A DNA stretch of 42,624 nt from sequence record NC_073077.1, one strand, 5' to 3'. Each line of letters starts with the position of its first letter. The stretch's first letter is position 1. The notes under the pieces were generated by a model that saw nothing but the letters and a program-made list of their open reading frames with translations, searched no databases and was not told the origin of the DNA. This DNA is from Escherichia phage vB_Eco_Maverick. This document shows, in pieces, positions 16,347 through 42,621 of this stretch. The position numbers and the translations under genes were made by a program.

Positions 16347-16625
16347 TTAAGCGACCAATTCAGCAACCAATAAATCACAGTCGGCTATGTTGTCGATGAC
16401 GCGAACGTCCGCACCGCGGCGGGCCATCCGCTCATGTTCTCGTACCTGGTGCGGCTTCGGTTTGCCTCCGGGGCGCTTCACTTCGACGAAAACTATTCTG
16501 CCGTTGATGATGATAATCAGATCGGGAGCACCTGCGCGCCCCTCCCAAGCAACTTTGCGGCAGAATCCGCCGACGGCTTTCACCCGTCTCATCAAGTGAC
16601 TTTGAATCTTGCCTTCTGGTGTCAT
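16347..16625 (-). CDS. VRR-NUC domain nuclease
   Basis: 92-aa product MTPEGKIQSHLMRRVKAVGGFCRKVAWEGRAGAPDLIIIINGRIVFVEVKRPGGK with PD...E-x-K core; ATG overlaps the polymerase stop (TAATG). Confidence 0.7.
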   Translation of the reverse strand: MTPEGKIQSHLMRRVKAVGGFCRKVAWEGRAGAPDLIIIINGRIVFVEVKRPGGKPKPHQVREHERMARRGADVRVIDNIADCDLLVAELVA

Positions 16626-18916
16626 TATTTCCTGTACCTGTACATAATGTCGCCTTCCGCGGCAAGCGGGAAGCCTTTCGCCCAAACAGGCAGGTCGCAC
16701 ATCAGCGCGCACAACTCCTCGGTTGTGTAGTCGTCAGTATCCGGAACTTCGGTTATCAGTTCATCGTGTACGGACAGTACGATCTCATATCCCGCAGCTT
16801 CAACGCCAGGCATGGACCATGCGAGGATATCGCGACACAGCGCCTGTACGATGTTTTCCGTGAGTTTGCCGCCGTAGGTGTACTGGAAGCCCCACTGGCG
16901 GGTCGTCTGATTCTCGCCCTGATATTTAATGCGGGTGCTGGTGCGTTTCTTGCCAGTATCTTCGTCGATCTCGGTAGTGACAGACAGCGCAATGCCCGGA
17001 TAACTCATAATACGCCCCGACGGCAACTCAATTTTCAACCACCACCCCGCGGCGTTCGGGTCGTCGCGTTCCTCGTCGAAGGTTGGGTCATGCTTCGCCT
17101 TCGTGCGGACTATCTTGAGCGCTTTCTTACCATCCGGGCGAACGTTCGCGCCAGCCCAGTACGCTTTGCCAGGATTGCGGATTGCACACAACACCGCGTC
17201 CTCAAGCTCGGCCCAAAAGGCTACCGTCTTCGGGTGGGCCTCACGCCACATGCGTTTGATCGCGTCGCAGGTCAGCCAAACGTTTTTAGGCAGTATGTAA
17301 GTCGGGCGCTCGTCCTTCTTGCCCGGCTTCGGCGGTCGCTTCGCTTCGTTAATGCGGGCGTACTCATAACCCCGTTTAGCCGCTGCCCAAATGTGATCGG
17401 GGAATGTGCCCTTCATGACGTCCGCCATCGCGTAAAGGTCGAGGCCCAGGTTTTTAGCGAACTGCAAGAACGCAGCCACGCCGCCGCCATAGCCAAGTCC
17501 CAACTCACACGCCTTACCAATCTGGCGTAGGTCTTTGCGGTTGGCTTTAATGTATTCCGGGTCAAGGCCGAACATCTTACCGGCAGTTTCACAATAAATA
17601 TCGCGACCGGCCCTAAACACCATTAGCGCGGTTTTCTCACCAGCGATCCAGGCGAGGCCACGCCCTTCCACGTTAGAGTAGTCCGCTACGACAAACTTCT
17701 TGCCCTTAGCCGGGATAATGCACCCGCGAACGGTCGAGGCTGTTAGCTTAGATATGTCATACGCCCAGTGCGCGGTCCCGCGTAACAGGGAATTGATGCC
17801 GTTGGTGAGCATGTGCGACCGGACCCAAAAAGCAACGTCGCTCTCGCCTTCGCGGCGCTTAATCTTCCCTTCGTGATCGTCGCTATACTCGCCGCGTGCC
17901 AGGTTTTGAGGCTGGAAGCCTTTACCAGCCCAGCGCAGCGTGCGCTTTGCGCCACCATACTGAAGACACCCACGGCGGCGACCATCTGCGGATAAGCCGT
18001 TAACTAGCGGATTGTACTTAGTCGATGCCGTTGATGACGCACCGAGGCGCATTTCGATAAGCGCTTTGCCTTCGTCGGGGAAGTCCGGGTCTTCAAGCAG
18101 GTCGTTAAGTGTGGATTTCTGCGCGTTGTGTATCGTGAATGCTGGCGCAATATCACGCAGGATTGGCAGGAAGTCATTGCCGGTCAGCTTACCGCCAAAC
18201 CGCTCCCAGGCTTCTTCCTTCAATTCTTCCTTATGCGCCTGCACCGCTTTGATCGCGGCGTTCGCCAGGTCAACGTCAACGTAGAAGCCGCGGTCGTTAA
18301 TCAACTGGTCGATGAGCAGGATTTCATCTTCCTTCGGTGAGTTGCCCCAGTCCGGTATGCGCCAGTAGACTTCACGCATGGCAACAATATCCAGCGCGGC
18401 ATAGCGCAAGAATTTGGCCCATTCTTCGGGGTGCGTCTCGCGTGTGTAGCGGCGGATTTTGTAGGTCTTAGGGGTGGGCTTACAGAATCGTTTAATCAGC
18501 GCCTTGCCTGCCTTATCCTTCGCGTGCTCTGCGTCAACGCCCAGCACCTGACACTGCATATCGAGGCTGCCCGGCAGCGCGTGCCGAAAGGCCATAATCA
18601 TGGTATCTTCGATCTGGCTTACCGGCAGGTCGATGCCCCACTTCTCACGGATAACCAGGCGGTCAAACAGGAGGCCGTTAGCCATCACTATTTTTGCTTT
18701 CTTGCGGGATACATGGCGGAGCGCCTTGCGCAGTTCACGCGGCATTGTGGGGGATTCAGTGCAATCCCATGTCTGCACGCGGCCTTCGTCGATGGCGTAG
18801 GTGCAAATCATAATCTCGGTGGTTGGGTGCTCTGCGTAGGCGTACGCCCCTACTTTCTTCAGGTCCACCCCGCTAAATGTCTCGGTGTCGAGAAACAGAC
18901 GTTCGAAGTCTTTCAT
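16625..18916 (-). CDS. family A DNA polymerase (Pol I-like, with 3'-5' exonuclease domain)
   Basis: Exo I motif FLDTETFS at the N-terminus; polymerase motif A VADYSNVEGRGLAWIAGE, motif B KACELGLGYGGGVAAF, motif C LSVHDELITEV. Confidence 0.95.
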   Translation of the reverse strand: MKDFERLFLDTETFSGVDLKKVGAYAYAEHPTTEIMICTYAIDEGRVQTWDCTESPTMPRELRKALRHVSRKKAKIVMANGLLFDRLVIREKWGIDLPVSQIEDTMIMAFRHALPGSLDMQCQVLGVDAEHAKDKAGKALIKRFCKPTPKTYKIRRYTRETHPEEWAKFLRYAALDIVAMREVYWRIPDWGNSPKEDEILLIDQLINDRGFYVDVDLANAAIKAVQAHKEELKEEAWERFGGKLTGNDFLPILRDIAPAFTIHNAQKSTLNDLLEDPDFPDEGKALIEMRLGASSTASTKYNPLVNGLSADGRRRGCLQYGGAKRTLRWAGKGFQPQNLARGEYSDDHEGKIKRREGESDVAFWVRSHMLTNGINSLLRGTAHWAYDISKLTASTVRGCIIPAKGKKFVVADYSNVEGRGLAWIAGEKTALMVFRAGRDIYCETAGKMFGLDPEYIKANRKDLRQIGKACELGLGYGGGVAAFLQFAKNLGLDLYAMADVMKGTFPDHIWAAAKRGYEYARINEAKRPPKPGKKDERPTYILPKNVWLTCDAIKRMWREAHPKTVAFWAELEDAVLCAIRNPGKAYWAGANVRPDGKKALKIVRTKAKHDPTFDEERDDPNAAGWWLKIELPSGRIMSYPGIALSVTTEIDEDTGKKRTSTRIKYQGENQTTRQWGFQYTYGGKLTENIVQALCRDILAWSMPGVEAAGYEIVLSVHDELITEVPDTDDYTTEELCALMCDLPVWAKGFPLAAEGDIMYRYRK

Positions 18917-19083
18917 TGCTTTATCCTCACTACGGCGTCAGCGCTGCCGATCATGGAGAAGATGCCGTCTGACAGGGTGATCTCTTCGCCGTTGTTGCGA
19001 ATCTCGGCAACTGTGAAATATTCCCCCAGTAGCTTGGACCATACTTTCATCCCGACTTTTACTTCGCTGGCTTTAATACGCAT
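18913..19083 (-). CDS. small hypothetical protein
   Basis: 56-aa ORF (below the track cutoff) MRIKASEVKVGMKVWSK..., AGGA Shine-Dalgarno, stop overlaps the polymerase start. Confidence 0.3.
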   Translation of the reverse strand: MRIKASEVKVGMKVWSKLLGEYFTVAEIRNNGEEITLSDGIFSMIGSADAVVRIKQ

Positions 19084-19096
19084 TTTTCATTGTCCT

Positions 19097-19122
19097 ATTA
19101 AAAAGCCCGCATTAAGCGGGCT
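19097..19122 (-). terminator. minus-strand rho-independent terminator after the SSB-like gene
   Basis: On the minus strand agcccgc-ttaat-gcgggct followed by ttttt. Confidence 0.65.
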
Positions 19123-19141
19123 TGAATAGTGGGCTTTGCCC

Positions 19142-19924
19142 TTAACGGCGGCGACGTTTACGTGGCGCTTCGTCTTCGTCGTCGTCCTCATCTTCGTCAT
19201 CGCGTGGCTTACGACGTTTGCGAGGTTTTTCATCTTCCTCATCGTCGTCGTCATCGCGGCGCTTGGATTTCTTGGACTTGCGCGGCTTGTCATCTTCATC
19301 ATCGTCATCACGACGTTTTGACTTCTTAGCCTTGCGCGGTGCTTCGTCTTCGTCGTCGTTGTCCAGGTCTTCATCGGAGCAAGAAGACCCGCCACCGCCG
19401 AAGGCTTCACCGTCATCACGGAAGCGTAAACCCAGCAAGCCAGCACCGAGTCCCTTGCCGTTGGTGTTGTTCCACGCCCAAATATCAAGGGACACGTTGC
19501 AATAACAACCAGAGTAGATCTCCTGGCCTTCAATCTCGTCGCCGTCGATGGTCAGACCTTGTTCAGTCTGCTTCTCGCCGAGTGACGTTTGAATGATTGG
19601 TTGTTTGAACGATTTGGCGTTGATATACAACATGCCTTCGAATTCTTCGGTTACTTCATCGCGCTCGTCGCCGTCGCGCACTGCGCATTCCTTAGAATCC
19701 TGGGCGTAGTGGCGGTCCATCCACTTATCGGCATTCTTCTCGGATTTCAGCTTGTCGGTGAGCACTGCGCGCGCTGCCGCTTCCACTTTGTCCACCTGCG
19801 GATCTTCTTTATCCAGAAGAATCACGGCACGGTATGCCGGTTTTTGTCCATCCTGTTTAGGGGTATCACGTTCCCAAATTTTCAGGAAACATACGCGCAC
19901 ATTTTTCAGGTTGACTTTAGCCAT
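19142..19924 (-). CDS. DUF2815-like single-stranded DNA-binding protein with repetitive charged C-terminal tail
   Basis: N-terminus MAKVNLKNVRVCFLKIWE matches the conserved start of DUF2815 proteins found beside DUF2800 nucleases and PolA; C-terminal 90 aa are alternating poly-D/E and poly-K/R blocks encoded by DNA tandem repeats. Confidence 0.65.
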   Translation of the reverse strand: MAKVNLKNVRVCFLKIWERDTPKQDGQKPAYRAVILLDKEDPQVDKVEAAARAVLTDKLKSEKNADKWMDRHYAQDSKECAVRDGDERDEVTEEFEGMLYINAKSFKQPIIQTSLGEKQTEQGLTIDGDEIEGQEIYSGCYCNVSLDIWAWNNTNGKGLGAGLLGLRFRDDGEAFGGGGSSCSDEDLDNDDEDEAPRKAKKSKRRDDDDEDDKPRKSKKSKRRDDDDDEEDEKPRKRRKPRDDEDEDDDEDEAPRKRRRR

Positions 19925-20014
19925 TTTCCAATTCCTCATTTTCACATGCATCGGGGTTATTGGAAGCCACCCCGTTCGGCTTGGTTGCCAATTTACTTGG
20001 TTGCGCCTAAGCGG

Positions 20015-20257
20015 TCAAGCATTTTCATTAAAAAGATTTCTGGTAACGTAGTCGGTAGCGTTCTCGATCCAGCTTAATGGCGGGCGGTCGATATTCTTCT
20101 CCACCCAATCGGCGGCAGCGTCGCTATAACCGTCATCCAGCCAGCGGGTCGGATGCCGAATCATCCACGCCACCATTAACACGCCATGCACACAATGCAG
20201 GATAAAGCACAGCGCGCCGATAACAAACATCAATAATATTGCGAATACTTTATTCAT
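20015..20257 (-). CDS. small membrane protein
   Basis: 80 aa with two hydrophobic helices (VFAILLMFVIGALCFILHCVHGVLMVAWMI). Confidence 0.4.
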   Translation of the reverse strand: MNKVFAILLMFVIGALCFILHCVHGVLMVAWMIRHPTRWLDDGYSDAAADWVEKNIDRPPLSWIENATDYVTRNLFNENA

Positions 20258-21680
20258 TGCTTAAGTCCTCGTCAGTAGCTACAGACCACGCAGGGCGCGG
20301 GTCGTCGATGGGTGCTAATACCGGTTTAGCTGGTGCGCGCGTTATTTTATCACACAACTTTGCCCACACTTTCGGCTTCTCGTCCTTCAGTACCTTCTCG
20401 GCATCAGTAGGGCTGAGTAATGTTTCTTTGTACATAACATCGCGCTTGATCCGGGCCTTCGTGAAGATTTCAATCACTTCGCTTTCGTCCGCCCACTTGC
20501 GGATCCCTTCCTTACCGGCAACCATTTTGAGGCCCAGAGATTCGCCTTCGCCAGCCATAACCGCCTTGAATACCGCGGACTCTATAGCCTTGATGTGCTG
20601 GCGCATTGCGTCTAAACCTTCATATGCCTTGCGCAGTTCTGCGGCGGTCATAGCGCCTGGGGCCGCTTCTTTCTTACCACGCTTCGCACGTCGTGCCGCT
20701 TTGCGGGCTTCGCGGGCCATATTGCGGTCGTGATTGGCGCATTCTTCCTCTGTCGCAATACTCACGTCGTCGCCCAGGTCTTCGTCTGTTGCCGTTGGTG
20801 GGGCCATCGTGTCGATTGCGGCCTTAGCGCGGGCGCTACACTGATCCGCAAATCTGCACCACTGACACGCATCAACGCTCGGTCGGAAGTCGGCGCGGGT
20901 GAGTCCTTTCTTACCGCGGGCGTACGCTTCCAGGGCGGCGATAGCACGCTTGGACGCAAACTTCGCGAATATCTCCAGGGCTTCTACCGAAATATCCCAC
21001 TCCGACGCCCCGCCGCAATACGGCTGGAAGATAACCAGGCGCACGGTCGTAATGTCGTACATGGTTTTCAGCTTGCGCAGCAGGCCCAGCGCATACAACA
21101 TAAGCTGTTTGTTTTCTTTCGCCTCGACCTTATGCCGCCCAGTCTTCAGGTCGCCAACAATCAGCATGTACGTGCCGTCGGTCTTCTTCATGACCATGAC
21201 CATATCTGCAGTACCGAACGTCTTAACCCGGTTGCCGTCGATCTCGAAGCCAGAGTGTAGGACGCGGGTCAGATCGGCGCGCATCTCAAGCTGAACAAAC
21301 TCCGCCACTTCGAGGAGCGGTCGCCAGTGGTCGATGTATGCGTCGCACTGTTTCACCATGTCGTCGTTGACCAGCACGCCGCCTTTCGGTGCTTTCGGGT
21401 GTGCCTTTACCGGTCCCTTACCCTCGTTCTCGACGTAGCACCCTTTGTACGTCTTCGCGGTTATCAGCTTCTCACCGGCAATGATGCGGTTGAGCACGAC
21501 TTCAGATACGGTGTGCATACTCGTACCGTTAATCGCCGCTTGCCCTGATTCGTTCGGGATATCTTTTTCCACCACCAGGGCGGCGGGGCAACCCATCCAT
21601 TTTTTAGCACCGGATGGGCCGAGTAATGAGTGTTCCGTGTTGCTGCCGGATTGCGTTTTACGTTTTGGTTTAATCGCCAT
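20250..21680 (-). CDS. DUF2800-like PD-(D/E)xK exonuclease (Cas4/RecB-like)
   Basis: N-terminal HSLLGPSGAKKWMGCPA signature, central D...E-x-K region, and C-terminal Cys cluster CQWCRFADQC; adjacent to DUF2815-like and PolA genes. Confidence 0.75.
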   Translation of the reverse strand: MAIKPKRKTQSGSNTEHSLLGPSGAKKWMGCPAALVVEKDIPNESGQAAINGTSMHTVSEVVLNRIIAGEKLITAKTYKGCYVENEGKGPVKAHPKAPKGGVLVNDDMVKQCDAYIDHWRPLLEVAEFVQLEMRADLTRVLHSGFEIDGNRVKTFGTADMVMVMKKTDGTYMLIVGDLKTGRHKVEAKENKQLMLYALGLLRKLKTMYDITTVRLVIFQPYCGGASEWDISVEALEIFAKFASKRAIAALEAYARGKKGLTRADFRPSVDACQWCRFADQCSARAKAAIDTMAPPTATDEDLGDDVSIATEEECANHDRNMAREARKAARRAKRGKKEAAPGAMTAAELRKAYEGLDAMRQHIKAIESAVFKAVMAGEGESLGLKMVAGKEGIRKWADESEVIEIFTKARIKRDVMYKETLLSPTDAEKVLKDEKPKVWAKLCDKITRAPAKPVLAPIDDPRPAWSVATDEDLSNE

Positions 21681-22298: not shown

Positions 22299-22812
22299 TT
22301 AATCTTCCAGTTCGAAATAGGTTTCGACGATTTCTTTTAACTCTGTGTGGAAGTCTTCGACGTCGTCATCTTCCAGCTTGGCGATTGATTTTATCTCGAA
22401 CGATTCCAGCAGGTCGTCGAATTCGTCGTTCGCATCGTCGTCATCACCACCGGCGATAATCGCGGCATACTGTTTGATTTCGTCGCGCATCTCCGCCAGC
22501 GGATCGGCATCTTTCTTGCCTTTGCCTTTCGCTTTTTTAGCCTTAGCCGGTTTTTCGTCTTCGGCGTCTTCGTCGTCGTCATCTTCTACGACTTCTTTTT
22601 TGGCCTTACCCTTCGCCGGTGCTTTTTTAGCTTTAGCCGGTTTTTCGTCTTCGGCTTCATCGTCGCCATCTTCGACAACTTCTTTTTTGGCCTTAGACGG
22701 CTTCTTGTCGTCCTGCTTACCAACGGCAGCGCCAACGGTTTCATAATGCTTAGCGATGACTTCCAGTGCTACTACGCCGCGAGTGATCAGGTTTACGATT
22801 TGCTCAAACATG
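22299..22812 (-). CDS. charged-repeat protein (acidic blocks alternating with Lys/Ala-rich blocks)
   Basis: Start at MFEQIVNL with GGAG Shine-Dalgarno 8 nt upstream; contains two near-identical ~78-bp DNA repeats (22531-22608 and 22621-22696) encoding KKEVVEDxDDEAEDEKPAKAKKA; the longer frame to 22991 lacks an RBS. Confidence 0.55.
22531..22696. repeat. intragenic tandem repeat, two ~78-bp units with a ~90-bp period
   Basis: gcttttttagccttagccggtttttcgtcttcggc... repeated with a few substitutions. Confidence 0.8.
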
Positions 22813-23553: not shown

Positions 23554-25818
23554 ATGAGCTTGATTAAATTCGCTGTAACACGACCCGCTAAAAAAGGCGA
23601 AAAAGCCAGGGCGGAAAACTTCCAGATGACTACCGAAGAGTTTTTCGAATTTATCAATGATGCGAAAGAAATCTCCTCGGTGCATATCAACAAAACGGAA
23701 GATAAAGCGGAGTATGCGCGCCGCAAGCGTAAGGCTGATGGGATTGTGGCTTATACCAGTGACGGATTACGCCGCAAGACCAGTGCGGTGGATCGCTCGA
23801 TCCTGTTCTTCGATATTGACCGTACCGACACCCGCACCCTGCGCCGCTGCCGTAAGGCGTTCATCGACGCGGGACTGGAACATGTATTTCACACCACAAC
23901 CGGCGATCGCCACCCGCTGAAAGGTGGCACGCGTTGCGCTCGTTTCCTGGTGCTCACTGACAAGCCTGTACCGGCTGAAGACCTGGGCCGCGTCCAGTAT
24001 GCACTATTACACCAACTGGGCCTGTCAGATGTGGACTTCGACGATTGCACGAAAGACACAAACCGCCTTATGTACCTGCCTCACCAGCAATCGGTTGTTA
24101 AGTGTCACTACGGCAAACGTGCCCGCGTCCGTCGTCTGCTGCGCCTGGCGGATAAGCTGGGAGTGGAAAAAGAGGAAGTACGCCGCGAACTAACCCAGGG
24201 CGATGACGGCGTGGCGGACGGCATTCTGGATTGGTGCTTCCAGGCCGGATTCGAACCGCTGTCGTCCGGTCGTGGTTATGAAGTGCCATGCCCGAACGAA
24301 CATCTGCACAGCGGCGAAGGGTCGACGGCTATCATGGTCAAGGATGGCGAGATCCGTTTCAAGTGTATGCACACCGGCAACGAGTGTTGCTCGGAACTGA
24401 ACAGACACCAGCACCTGGCGCTACGTCTTATCGGGATCCCGGACCACCTGAACGTCGAACCGCACAACATGTCACGTAAGCAAATAGCCGCCATCCTCCC
24501 AGGTCTGGACGACGAGGAAGTGGAATCGTGCTATGAACATATCGTTGATGCGGTTGGCGACGGCGACGAGTACGGCGGATGTACGGACGCAGACCTGGAC
24601 AACGAGCCGGTTGCACTGTTCAGTAAACACGACCCGATCATCGAGGGGTTGATTAACTTCAAATCGACCTGGTATATGGCGGGCGAGTCGAACATCGGTA
24701 AATCGTTCTACGTGCTGGGCCAAATGGGTGCTGTTGCCGCGGGTATTCCGTTCGGTGGTGCGAAGGTCGTCCAGTCTCATTGCTTCTATTTCGACGCGGA
24801 AGGTGGCGAAGCCTCCAACCAGCGTAAGGAAGCATTGCAGATTAAATATGAGCACGACCTGGACAAGCTGCACATTATCGATCTGCAATCACGCGGCTGG
24901 GATATCACCAGCAAATCCGGCTTGCGTGAAGTTATCAGCTTCATCAACCGCACCGCTAACGGCGAGCCGGTTGGCCTGGTGGCGTTCGACTCACTCAACC
25001 AGACTGTTGCGCTGCGGTCCGCCGATGCTAAACCGTTCGACGAGAACAACGCCAGCGATATGGGCGAAGTGGTCAAAGCGCTGAAGGCCATTGCGGAAAA
25101 TACAGGCGGCAGTGCGGGCGTCATCCACCACCCGGCGAAAGGTGCAAACGGCAGCAGATCCCCCCGCGGGTCCGGCGCGCTGCATGGTGCTGTTGATTCT
25201 GCGTTCTTCCTGGAACAGCCGGACGACAACCAGCCCGGACAACTGAACCTGTATCACGAGAAGGCACGTAACGGCATCAAGCAAGCGCCGCGCGGATTCG
25301 TCCTGCTCAAGTGCAAGGTTAAGGTGGATCTCCGCAAGTCCGAGGCGTTCGAAGCCCACCAGTCCACCAGCACCGGGCCGGACTTCGGTGACGTCGTTGC
25401 CGGTTGGGACGTCAAGCCGATTGCATCCACGCCTCGCGACGAGACTCTTTACCTCGTACCTGTCGCCCTGGCACCGTTCGCTATCGAACAGGCGAAGGCA
25501 GCGGGCAAGGCCGCAGTTAAGGAAGAGAACACCGCCGGACCGCGCACCGAAAAAGAAAAGGTACTTTACGCGGCCCTGGAAAAACTGATGGAAGATAACC
25601 CGGACCATACCGGATTCAGCAAATCGGCAATTGTCCGCCAGGCTGGGCTTGCGAAAGGTGGCACATCGACGAAGGCAATTGACGATATGGTCGAGCGCGG
25701 CGTGCTAGGTTTTTATACAGACCCACACACCGGGGCCATCTATGGGTCGTCGAATATCGTCATCAAAACGAATATACCCATCACGCTTTCGGCGACCGAC
25801 GACGACCTGAAAGATTAA
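23554..25818 (+). CDS. DNA primase-helicase (primase-polymerase-like N-terminus, RecA/DnaB-type ATPase, C-terminal DNA-binding region)
   Basis: N-terminal acidic motif FFDIDRTD and a Cys/His cluster (CPNEHLH...C..H); Walker A GESNIGKSFYVLG and Walker B LVAFDSLNQ; C-terminal winged-helix-like segment FSKSAIVRQAGLAKGG. Confidence 0.75.
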   Translation: MSLIKFAVTRPAKKGEKARAENFQMTTEEFFEFINDAKEISSVHINKTEDKAEYARRKRKADGIVAYTSDGLRRKTSAVDRSILFFDIDRTDTRTLRRCRKAFIDAGLEHVFHTTTGDRHPLKGGTRCARFLVLTDKPVPAEDLGRVQYALLHQLGLSDVDFDDCTKDTNRLMYLPHQQSVVKCHYGKRARVRRLLRLADKLGVEKEEVRRELTQGDDGVADGILDWCFQAGFEPLSSGRGYEVPCPNEHLHSGEGSTAIMVKDGEIRFKCMHTGNECCSELNRHQHLALRLIGIPDHLNVEPHNMSRKQIAAILPGLDDEEVESCYEHIVDAVGDGDEYGGCTDADLDNEPVALFSKHDPIIEGLINFKSTWYMAGESNIGKSFYVLGQMGAVAAGIPFGGAKVVQSHCFYFDAEGGEASNQRKEALQIKYEHDLDKLHIIDLQSRGWDITSKSGLREVISFINRTANGEPVGLVAFDSLNQTVALRSADAKPFDENNASDMGEVVKALKAIAENTGGSAGVIHHPAKGANGSRSPRGSGALHGAVDSAFFLEQPDDNQPGQLNLYHEKARNGIKQAPRGFVLLKCKVKVDLRKSEAFEAHQSTSTGPDFGDVVAGWDVKPIASTPRDETLYLVPVALAPFAIEQAKAAGKAAVKEENTAGPRTEKEKVLYAALEKLMEDNPDHTGFSKSAIVRQAGLAKGGTSTKAIDDMVERGVLGFYTDPHTGAIYGSSNIVIKTNIPITLSATDDDLKD

Positions 25819-25978: not shown

Positions 25979-26128
25979 GCGGGACAGAAAGCGGGACAAA
26001 CAGGGGGCGGGACAAAGCGGGACAGCACCCCCGTCCCGCCCCGGATGACGCGGCTTCCAGAGGAGCGGGACAGCGGGACAGCACCCCAGTCTTTCAGACT
26101 AGACGGGGGTCAACGGCCCCCCTCGTCT
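25979..26128. repeat. iteron cluster: six direct GCGGGACA octamers plus one inverted copy, ending in a 28-nt GC hairpin (internal copy)
   Basis: GCGGGACA at 25979, 25991, 26007, 26017, 26065, 26073; inverted GTCCCGC at 26033; hairpin agacgggggtcaacggcccccctcgtct at 26101-26128; TGCATAAA box at 25967. Confidence 0.85.
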
Positions 26129-42327: not shown

Positions 42328-42621
42328 GCGGGACGTCCCGCTTTGTCCCGCCCTGTAAAACCGCATATCTAATCACTTTCATTGCATAAACTCAAAGCGG
42401 GACAGGCGGGACGTCCCGTTTTGTCCCACCCACGAAATGTGCATACCTATTCGAATTTCGTGCATAAAACAAGCGGGACAGAAAGCGGGACAGACAAGGG
42501 GCGGGACAAAGCGGGACAGCACCCAGTCCCCGCCAGTGCTGCCGCGGTTTTCAGCCGATCGGGACAAGCGGGACAAAGCCCAGTCTTTCAGACTAGACGG
42601 GGGTCAACGGCCCCCCTCGTC
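42328..42621. repeat. iteron cluster: GCGGGACGTCCCGC palindromes, about seven direct GCGGGACA octamers, two TGCATAAA boxes, ending in the same 28-nt hairpin (terminal copy, continues into bases 1-200)
   Basis: Palindrome at 42328-42341 and 42406-42418; GCGGGACA at 42397, 42473, 42485, 42501, 42511, 42568; TGCATAAA at 42383 and 42461; hairpin at 42594-42621. Confidence 0.85.

Follow-up and report, generated by a model that had tools for sequence, protein, structure and literature searches.

The SSB (single-stranded DNA-binding protein) of Escherichia phage vB_Eco_Maverick (NC_073077.1), encoded on the minus strand of the 42,624-nt stretch that we analysed as a whole (hereafter the window), ends in a long C-terminal tail in which acidic and basic blocks alternate. 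This tail is a previously unstudied form of SSB C-terminal tail on a clear member of a known family: in the literature searched, we found no paper describing or testing an alternating-charge tail of PF10991 SSBs, and nothing relevant on polyampholyte or alternating-charge SSB tails. The original prediction, made from the DNA letters, had described such a tail, and residues 176-260 match the sequence it quoted; the span it gave, 19142-19400, is exact and holds the stop codon and residues 176-260. The appended part of the tail is a blocky polyampholyte, built of units in which an x-P-R/K-rich stretch of 8-11 residues is joined to a D/E-rich stretch of 7-11 residues, with an oligo-Arg tip in place of the usual hydrophobic tip.

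Anatomy of the tail and identity of the core

In residues 176-260 (nt 19145-19399), a Gly hinge is followed by the acidic motif SDEDL and by four acidic/basic block pairs (Table 1). The length, originally given as about 90 residues, is 85 residues counted from the Gly hinge and 78 from the first acidic block. Of these 78 residues 36 are D/E and 28 are K/R; the charged fraction is 0.82, and the net charge amounts to -8, or -0.10 per residue. The charges are segregated far beyond chance: the patterning parameter kappa is 0.54 compared with 0.10±0.04 in shuffled sequences (n=2000; maximum 0.34; none of the 2000 reached 0.54), and the sign of the charge switches 7 times compared with 31.6±3.9 times in the shuffles (minimum 16). 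The imperfect DNA tandem repeats noted earlier have a 54-bp period, corresponding to an 18-residue unit, and were reported by Tandem Repeats Finder at 19234-19359 with 2.3 copies, 72% matches and a score of 140.

An AlphaFold2 model, built on a 102-sequence alignment, gave predicted local distance difference test (pLDDT) values of 93-98 for the core (residues 1-170) and of 49-60, with no secondary structure, for tail residues 190-260; the sole predicted tail helix spans residues 184-187, over DEDL. The C-terminal tail is hence predicted to be intrinsically disordered, and it combines the sequence traits of self-associating blocky polyampholytes, namely a high charged fraction, a near-neutral net charge, high segregation and predicted disorder. 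A reading of the region as an E/K/R-rich single alpha-helix was rejected because no helix of more than 4 residues is predicted and Pro stands at nearly every junction; the Asp-rich composition and the block length of 7-11 residues further contradict it.

For the core, a Pfam search returned PF10991 (Enc34_ssDNA-bd, formerly DUF2815) as the sole hit, at 108.8 bits against a cut-off of 26 (E-value 3e-31) and covering residues 12-202 of the longer, 269-residue form described below; there was no match to the PF00436 SSB_OB domain. The protein also matched phrog_112 ('Gp2.5-like ssDNA binding and annealing protein'; E-value 6e-55), and phmmer against PDB sequences retrieved 4klk, 4jg2 and Enc34 ORF6 (5odj) with E-values of 1e-11 to 3e-10. 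Foldseek with the SSB model found 4klk (3.5e-13), 5odl (1.4e-12) and T7 gp2.5 (1je5; 1.8e-6), as well as 5odj and 4jg2, whereas E. coli and mitochondrial SSBs were reached only at E-values >0.5. The model has the single-domain OB-fold variant seen in 5ODJ and 1JE5. When residues that contact single-stranded DNA (ssDNA) in Enc34 ORF6 were aligned by phmmer (~22% identity), W150, N154 and Y30 fell on W149, N153 and F13, respectively, and Y156 on N155 (with an extra W151 nearby), Y37 on T21 and K46 on A30 (with K28 nearby), so that in this alignment the first three are kept and the last three are not; R112 lies outside the comparison. By family and by modelled fold, the protein is a T7-gp2.5/Enc34-type ssDNA-binding protein, in line with the DUF2815 assignment originally proposed, and judging from its sequence matches it is probably also an annealing protein. 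Membership of the bacterial PF00436 SSBs with their DDDIPF-type tip was considered and rejected, given the RKRRRR tip of the window SSB and the missing SSB_OB match.

The textbook SSB tail is a docking module made of an acidic tail and a hydrophobic tip. The SDEDL motif with its acidic run corresponds by sequence to this canonical acidic tail, and the alternating blocks, judged likewise, are an add-on distal to the docking element. Set beside the acidic tail described for the family, the tail of the window protein is predicted to be unstructured, has a net charge of -8 and carries the proximal motif, yet 28 K/R residues are interleaved and the C-terminus is basic, a departure from that description. 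In this phage group, the tip has been replaced and charge-neutral units have been inserted.

Conservation, variation and spread of the tail

The window belongs to the Dhillonvirus group of coliphages, and a 611-nt stretch spanning the tail is 100% identical to vB_Eco_CS16. The tail protein is identical in slur05, and the Oekolampad tail differs by one residue. Fifteen close relatives (14 IMG/VR genomes and Oekolampad) have proteins of 224-261 residues with 2, 3 or 4 basic blocks, and in all 15 the tail opens with SDEDL. The APRKRRRR end is present in the window and in 14 of the 15; the relative that departs from it, L017 (85% identity), ends in KPRSRRNRR. We then compared the length of the tail region in GenBank, using a 60-record sample spread over the 149 Dhillonvirus-group records that matched in our 'near' DNA search. 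Among the sampled records spanning the region, all length differences relative to the window were multiples of 3 nt, with one exception, and many amounted to about one 54-bp unit. Recombination or slippage between the 54-bp repeats adds and removes units without disturbing the reading frame. The exception is vB_EcoS-22664B1, in which the length shift is not a multiple of 3 and the annotated protein, P0005, enters another frame; either the sequence contains an error here or the frameshift allele is real. The other frame (...VKGKAHYSSPLNAGFLIGQ) is likewise read by a metagenomic protein, P0008, and an open reading frame (ORF) at 19087..19533 (-) overlaps the tail on the same strand in another frame.

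These three observations would suit the view that there is no real protein feature at all: the assembly might have collapsed or expanded the repeats, the frame might have shifted, another frame might hold the gene, or the repeats might be a cis-acting DNA element (iterons or an origin) that happens to fall within the gene. We regard this as extremely improbable. Many independent assemblies agree, in-frame indels are the rule, and the alternative-frame product has no homologues beyond the two frameshifted entries and looks like compositional noise: the other frame stays open because the region is poor in T (T fraction 0.12). An alternative-frame gene or programmed frameshift was therefore rejected as a compositional effect. 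In addition, we calculated the proportions of synonymous (pS) and nonsynonymous (pN) differences in nine sequences of 259-261 residues that carry all four units (the window and eight relatives). For the tail, pS was 0.25, pN 0.020 and pN/pS 0.077; for the core, pS was 0.20 and pN/pS 0.039. Since the amino acids are kept while synonymous sites drift, the constraint acts on the protein and not on the DNA, and the low pN/pS of the tail at high synonymous divergence excludes an assembly artefact, a DNA repeat element or unconstrained junk. A DNA-level iteron or origin was rejected on the same ground, because synonymous sites diverge freely. The repeats are thus neither an artefact of assembly nor absent in relatives, either of which would have counted against the original prediction.

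Words that tails have in common skew a homologue search with the full-length protein towards similar tails, and we therefore repeated the search with the core only and added scans by core motifs. In the core-only search, all relatives with at least 44% core identity carried an alternating tail with 2-4 acidic/basic pairs. Below 40% core identity, most had a purely acidic tail of 16-35 residues, and 66 of the 68 purely acidic tails showed a hydrophobic residue among the last three positions. The alternating pattern and its junction grammar are still present at 37-44% core identity. Serratia Smarc3 has three acidic/basic pairs and Salmonella SaI_NFG_5579 two pairs and an acidic end, and a minimal one-unit form (...VDDLEDDEDETPRRERRRNR) is found in Jerseyvirus AG11 and Kagunavirus phiWAO78-1; classical acidic tails occur in Casjensviridae (Proteus RP6), APSE-1, Stenotrophomonas DLP4 and a Phocaeicola phage. 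The comparison of tail length and repeat number that had been suggested thus yields 2-4 units in close relatives and one in Jersey- and Kagunaviruses. When IMG/VR was scanned by core motifs alone, alternating tails appeared in 0/71, 0/73 and 5/60 loci, and since these scans found so few, the alternating tail is a minority state family-wide. In this enterobacterial siphophage clade, as far as the sequences sampled indicate, it is the rule, and a rough neighbour-joining tree places alternating tails in several core lineages. The statement that SSB tails are normally purely acidic, which made this one unusual, is thus right when the tail is compared with every characterised SSB and with most of PF10991; the tail is not a peculiarity of one genome, since all relatives with at least 44% core identity and other lineages carry such tails. 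A tail-only protein search returned nothing above threshold, presumably owing to composition correction.

A separate PF10991 clade (L193-L270 and L026; P0068-P0105), which includes a protein named from Amorphus orientalis, has 5-9 units in tails of up to 170 residues and keeps an acidic-hydrophobic tip (...DDDVA, ...DDDDY or ...DEIPF); its loci lie in the same nuclease-SSB-polymerase module. A scan of genome contigs added five loci, and the hits among them from a Bradyrhizobium genome and an alphaproteobacterial metagenome-assembled genome, whose tails have 1-2 basic blocks, are relatives of this clade.

Across the tails, 466 basic blocks are accompanied by 369 instances of the junction [DE][DE]-x(1,2)-P-[KRS], and acidic and basic residue counts are strongly correlated (r = 0.94). 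Net tail charge is -7.7, -8.1, -8.0 and -7.8 at 0, 1, 2 and 3 basic blocks, respectively. Given that net charge is flat over 0-3 blocks, added units are charge-neutral and the classical net acidity is preserved.

We asked whether these features need a function of the units at all. In a largely neutral low-complexity expansion, repeats would slip, selection would act only on frame, net charge and disorder, and the alternation would be a by-product of duplicating a two-charge unit. Phages with cores of 95% identity or more do differ in unit number, the alternative frame is open merely from T-poor composition, and a polymorphic repeat of a similar kind is present in another protein of this module, with a copy number that does not follow that of the SSB. 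However, a pN/pS of 0.077 at high synonymous divergence amounts to residue-level constraint within the genus, pattern and junction grammar hold down to core identities of 37-44% and reappear in other lineages, and hundreds of sequenced phages have kept the tail (the 'near' DNA search by itself matched 149 records), so that we consider neutral expansion an unlikely account.

The other repeat-bearing protein of the module is encoded at 22299-22811 (-), with MFEQIVNL as the probable start, and belongs to phrog_3127, a family of unknown function. It carries an alternating-charge repeat, KKEVVEDDDDEDAEDEKPAKAKKAPAKGKA, with the same acid-x-P-basic junction as the SSB tail, encoded within an 87-bp tandem repeat at 22531-22695. 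In Dhillonvirus relatives the phrog_3127 proteins have 1 or 2 units (142-180 residues), and these unit numbers show no correlation with the SSB numbers; in gp42, the Jerseyvirus homologue, there is just one weak unit.

A shared motif in the replication module

The acidic-hydrophobic motif at the start of the tail recurs elsewhere in the window. Searching all six-frame ORFs for [STA]D[DE]D[LF], we obtained four occurrences, every one in a replication protein: the SSB, the DUF2800 exonuclease (twice) and a 754-residue helicase (Table 1). A parallel exists in Jerseyvirus AG11, with SVDDLEDD in the SSB, VTEEDL at the very end of the exonuclease and TTEGDLE at that of the helicase-primase. To compare SSBs and exonucleases more broadly, we used 239 loci with both genes and defined the motif as [DE][DE][FLW] or [DE][FLW][DE]. 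It was present in the last 20 exonuclease residues at 189 of 232 loci (81%), compared with 36 of 610 other ORFs (6%). Over 79 dereplicated lineages, the SSB tail scored 20.6 against the C-terminus of its own exonuclease and 17.2 against those of other lineages (best 6-mer scores), and none of 10000 permutations reached the similarity observed for cognate pairs. The hydrophobic residue of the motif co-varies in SSB and exonuclease, being mostly F, L in the enterobacterial clade and W in Casjensviridae; accordingly, the proximal SSB motif is DDF in most of PF10991 and D[DE]DL in this clade. Based on this sharing and co-variation, we identify SDEDL with its acidic run as a conserved, putative docking element, and the shared motif is probably, by sequence and analogy, the common docking element of the replication/recombination module. 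The T7 replisome offers an analogy, as gp2.5 and the gp4 helicase-primase each use an acidic tail to dock on one common partner. The co-varying motif of SSB, exonuclease and helicase suggests a testable docking code for the DUF2800 nuclease/DUF2815 SSB/DNA polymerase I (Pol A) module.

The gene order fits this context, with a DUF2800/Cas4-like nuclease upstream of the SSB gene and a family A polymerase downstream. The same nuclease-SSB-polymerase module occurs in Enc34-like and many other phages, and a DUF2800 ORF lies upstream of the SSB in 239 of 271 sequence sets (270 loci and the window excerpt). In the ORF list of the window the SSB gene is contained in ORF 19142..19951 (-). Its true start is likely the ATG at 19924 (MAKVNL), with the Shine-Dalgarno sequence GAGGAA ahead of it; besides this sequence, the start used by most homologues and that annotated in SECphi phages favour the 260-residue form.

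Directly 3' of the SSB stop codon, folding revealed a hairpin (free energy -24.6 kcal/mol, z -5.0) that a consensus terminator scan had missed, and the annotation of vB_Eco_CS16 places a terminator at this position. The hairpin with its U-run is probably the intrinsic terminator of the SSB transcript, or an attenuator. Between the SSB and polymerase genes lies a conserved 56-residue ORF (18913-19083, -) that matches phrog_10102, a family of unknown function; escape mutants in or just upstream of this ORF have been listed for a SECphi phage (intergenic) and for SECphi18 (E21fs) (bioRxiv 10.1101/2022.08.27.505566, supplementary table). Elsewhere in the window, clusters of short direct repeats with AAGCGGGAC and periods of 8, 12, 16 and 78 were seen at 25984-26082 and 42328-42519; both stretches are apparently non-coding, and the clusters could be regulatory or protein-binding sites.

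Table 1. Coordinates of the SSB gene, the segments of its tail, the shared motif and neighbouring features in the window.
Feature	Position (nt)	Strand	Remarks
SSB gene	19142..19924	-	260 aa and stop; Enc34/T7-gp2.5-type, PF10991
Upstream ATG (19951)	19925-19951	-	start of the 269-aa annotation in some GenBank relatives, e.g. Oekolampad bas18_0043
OB-fold core, residues 1-175	19400..19924	-	AlphaFold2 pLDDT, Foldseek, phmmer
Gly/Ser hinge GGGGSSC, residues 176-182	19379..19399	-	pLDDT drops here
Proximal acidic block SDEDLDNDDEDE, residues 183-194	19343..19378	-	contains the acidic-hydrophobic motif
Basic block 1, APRKAKKSKRR	19310..19342	-	
Acidic block 2, DDDDEDD	19289..19309	-	
Basic block 2, KPRKSKKSKRR	19256..19288	-	forms the 54-bp (18-aa) tandem unit with neighbouring blocks
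Acidic block 3, DDDDDEEDE	19229..19255	-	
Basic block 3, KPRKRRKPR	19202..19228	-	
Acidic block 4, DDEDEDDDEDE	19169..19201	-	
Basic C-terminal tip, APRKRRRR	19145..19168	-	
SSB tail start, CSDEDLDND	19343-19378	-	shared motif
Exonuclease, internal, TATDEDLGDD	20766-20795	-	shared motif
DUF2800 exonuclease C-terminus, VATDEDLSNE-stop	20253..20282	-	shared motif
754-aa helicase C-terminus, SATDDDLKD-stop	25789..25815	+	shared motif
DUF2800 PD-(D/E)XK exonuclease	20250-21680		upstream neighbour of the SSB gene
Family A polymerase (Pol A)	16625-18916		downstream neighbour of the SSB gene
Hairpin followed by U-run	19095..19130	-	directly 3' of the SSB stop, before the 56-aa ORF and the polymerase gene

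Possible roles of the tail and comparison with known systems

We tentatively favour, at a probability of roughly 0.4, a reading in which the proximal docking motif is followed by multivalent electrostatic units that tune SSB assembly, with unit number setting the valency. The proximal acidic motif would keep its canonical roles: it would fill the basic cleft for ssDNA as long as the protein is free, and it would dock partners. The exonuclease and helicase that carry the same motif would fit the partner-docking role. The alternating blocks would add multivalent, salt-sensitive electrostatic contacts, in which basic blocks may pair with acidic blocks of neighbouring SSB molecules and/or with the DNA backbone. 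With such contacts, SSB-coated ssDNA could show more cooperativity, bridging or annealing, and condensates might be nucleated at replication/recombination sites. High charge segregation, predicted disorder and multivalency are compatible with self-association or phase separation, the possible roles originally proposed, and the disordered linker of E. coli SSB is known to drive both cooperativity and phase separation.

Several observations speak against this interpretation. Sequence charge decoration (SCD) does not separate the tail from its shuffles, and among alternating tails 71 tips are basic and 63 acidic; as the sign of the tip varies, we give the oligo-Arg tip no specific role. The extra units are non-essential, since natural isolates with 2, 3 and 4 units are all viable. 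Furthermore, the one highly charged SSB linker that has been tested, that of Plasmodium SSB, does away with phase separation and with long-range cooperativity when E. coli SSB carries it (the EcPfEc chimera); this linker is strongly net-acidic and not blocky, unlike the phage tail. Finally, the work on SECphi4 and SECphi18 used the full protein, and escape mapped to T56P in the core and not to the tail.

A stronger version of the assembly reading, which we hold to be doubtful, is that the tail drives electrostatic condensation of a phage replication/recombination compartment on ssDNA. The phrog_3127 repeat might join such a condensate, the shared motif would recruit exonuclease and helicase as clients, and repeat number would serve as an evolvable valency dial. 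If true, phages would have their own equivalent of the condensate scaffolds that work by charge patterning.

Alternatively, the tail may act in cis, with basic blocks folding back on the acidic blocks or the docking motif as an electrostatic latch, or binding DNA, and so shifting annealing and the discrimination between ssDNA and double-stranded DNA (dsDNA) with no higher-order assembly. In T7 gp2.5 and Enc34 ORF6, the acidic tail vies with DNA for the cleft or governs ssDNA/dsDNA discrimination; Enc34 ORF6 lacking its 21 C-terminal residues gains dsDNA binding, and removal of the tail from T7 gp2.5 or T4 gp32 raises DNA affinity (PMC5686142). Cationic blocks would push in the same direction. 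Moreover, the Pro at nearly every acid-to-basic junction would suit hairpin-like pairing of adjacent blocks, and the minimal Jersey-/Kagunavirus form, with one acidic block and an Arg tip, gives little bridging valency. On the other hand, the units are charge-neutral and leave the net charge unchanged, so the tail overall is not more DNA-like or cationic; an expansion to 4-9 units is hard to justify for a simple latch, and in the AlphaFold2 model the tail is not docked on the core, albeit at low confidence. Taken together, we consider such a cis-acting regulator possible but somewhat unlikely.

We also considered an arms race, in which the SSB is an abundant trigger of abortive infection and the length or charge of its tail is adjusted so that host sensors are evaded or decoyed or a host factor is bound, for example the acidic tip of the host SSB. 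Dhillonvirus-group SSBs (SECphi4, SECphi6 and SECphi18) do trigger Retron-Eco8, and SSBs have been implicated in escape from Hachiman and ShosTA (bioRxiv 10.1101/2022.08.27.505566); fast unit-number polymorphism is typical of interface regions in conflict. Nevertheless, this scenario appears quite improbable to us, given that the reported SECphi4 and SECphi18 escape mutations are all T56P in the core or promoter changes, with none in the tail, that the C-terminal tail of T7 gp2.5 is dispensable for Retron-Eco8 activation (PMC13402713), and that the low tail pN/pS speaks against diversifying selection.

What makes the tail useful is that unit number evolves fast while net charge stays constant, in a large and well-sampled phage group (Dhillonvirus, Jerseyvirus and Kagunavirus) that includes BASEL-collection and SECphi model phages. 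It offers a natural allelic series of 1, 2, 3, 4 and up to ~9 units in genetically tractable phages, with which charge patterning could be related to ssDNA binding, annealing, cooperativity and condensation. The tail also bears on studies of defence systems that recognise these SSBs, which have paid it no attention up to now.

[quoted passage not shown] It differs in its short, purely acidic tail, with 16 D/E in the last 29 residues and the end ...WDEDEDEV (PMC5686142), whereas the window SSB has four interleaved K/R-rich blocks and the tip APRKRRRR. T7 gp2.5 belongs to the same fold class (1je5), and its common docking with gp4 parallels the motif shared by SSB, exonuclease and helicase in the window. 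In contrast to its 26-residue acidic tail, which ends in an essential Phe, the window SSB has no aromatic or hydrophobic C-terminus; the motif is internal and followed by the polyampholyte, and identity between the two proteins is ~11-14%.

The closest proteins with experimental data, and the only alternating-tail members that have any, are the 'predicted SSB (Gp2.5 family)' proteins of SECphi4 and SECphi18, near-identical orthologues from the same phage group as the window. The SECphi18 tail has four blocks, as in the window, and that of SECphi4 has three. When expressed, they trigger Retron-Eco8, and T56P, a change in the core, allows escape; the structural figure of the SECphi4 study leaves out the 'flexible C-terminal residues'. 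That these orthologues behave as SSB-type Retron-Eco8 triggers is, by analogy, an indirect pointer to ssDNA binding. For an add-on between core and tip, the linker of E. coli SSB is the best functional analogy: that protein also has a disordered tail with a docking motif, which tunes cooperativity and condensation, but it is a tetramer of the PF00436 fold family with a Gly/Gln/Pro-rich, almost uncharged linker and an acidic-hydrophobic tip. Alternating charged blocks in a disordered region are found in the C-terminal domain of Caulobacter RNase E, for which condensation has been demonstrated; the blocky charge alternation is alike, but RNase E is an unrelated, non-homologous protein.

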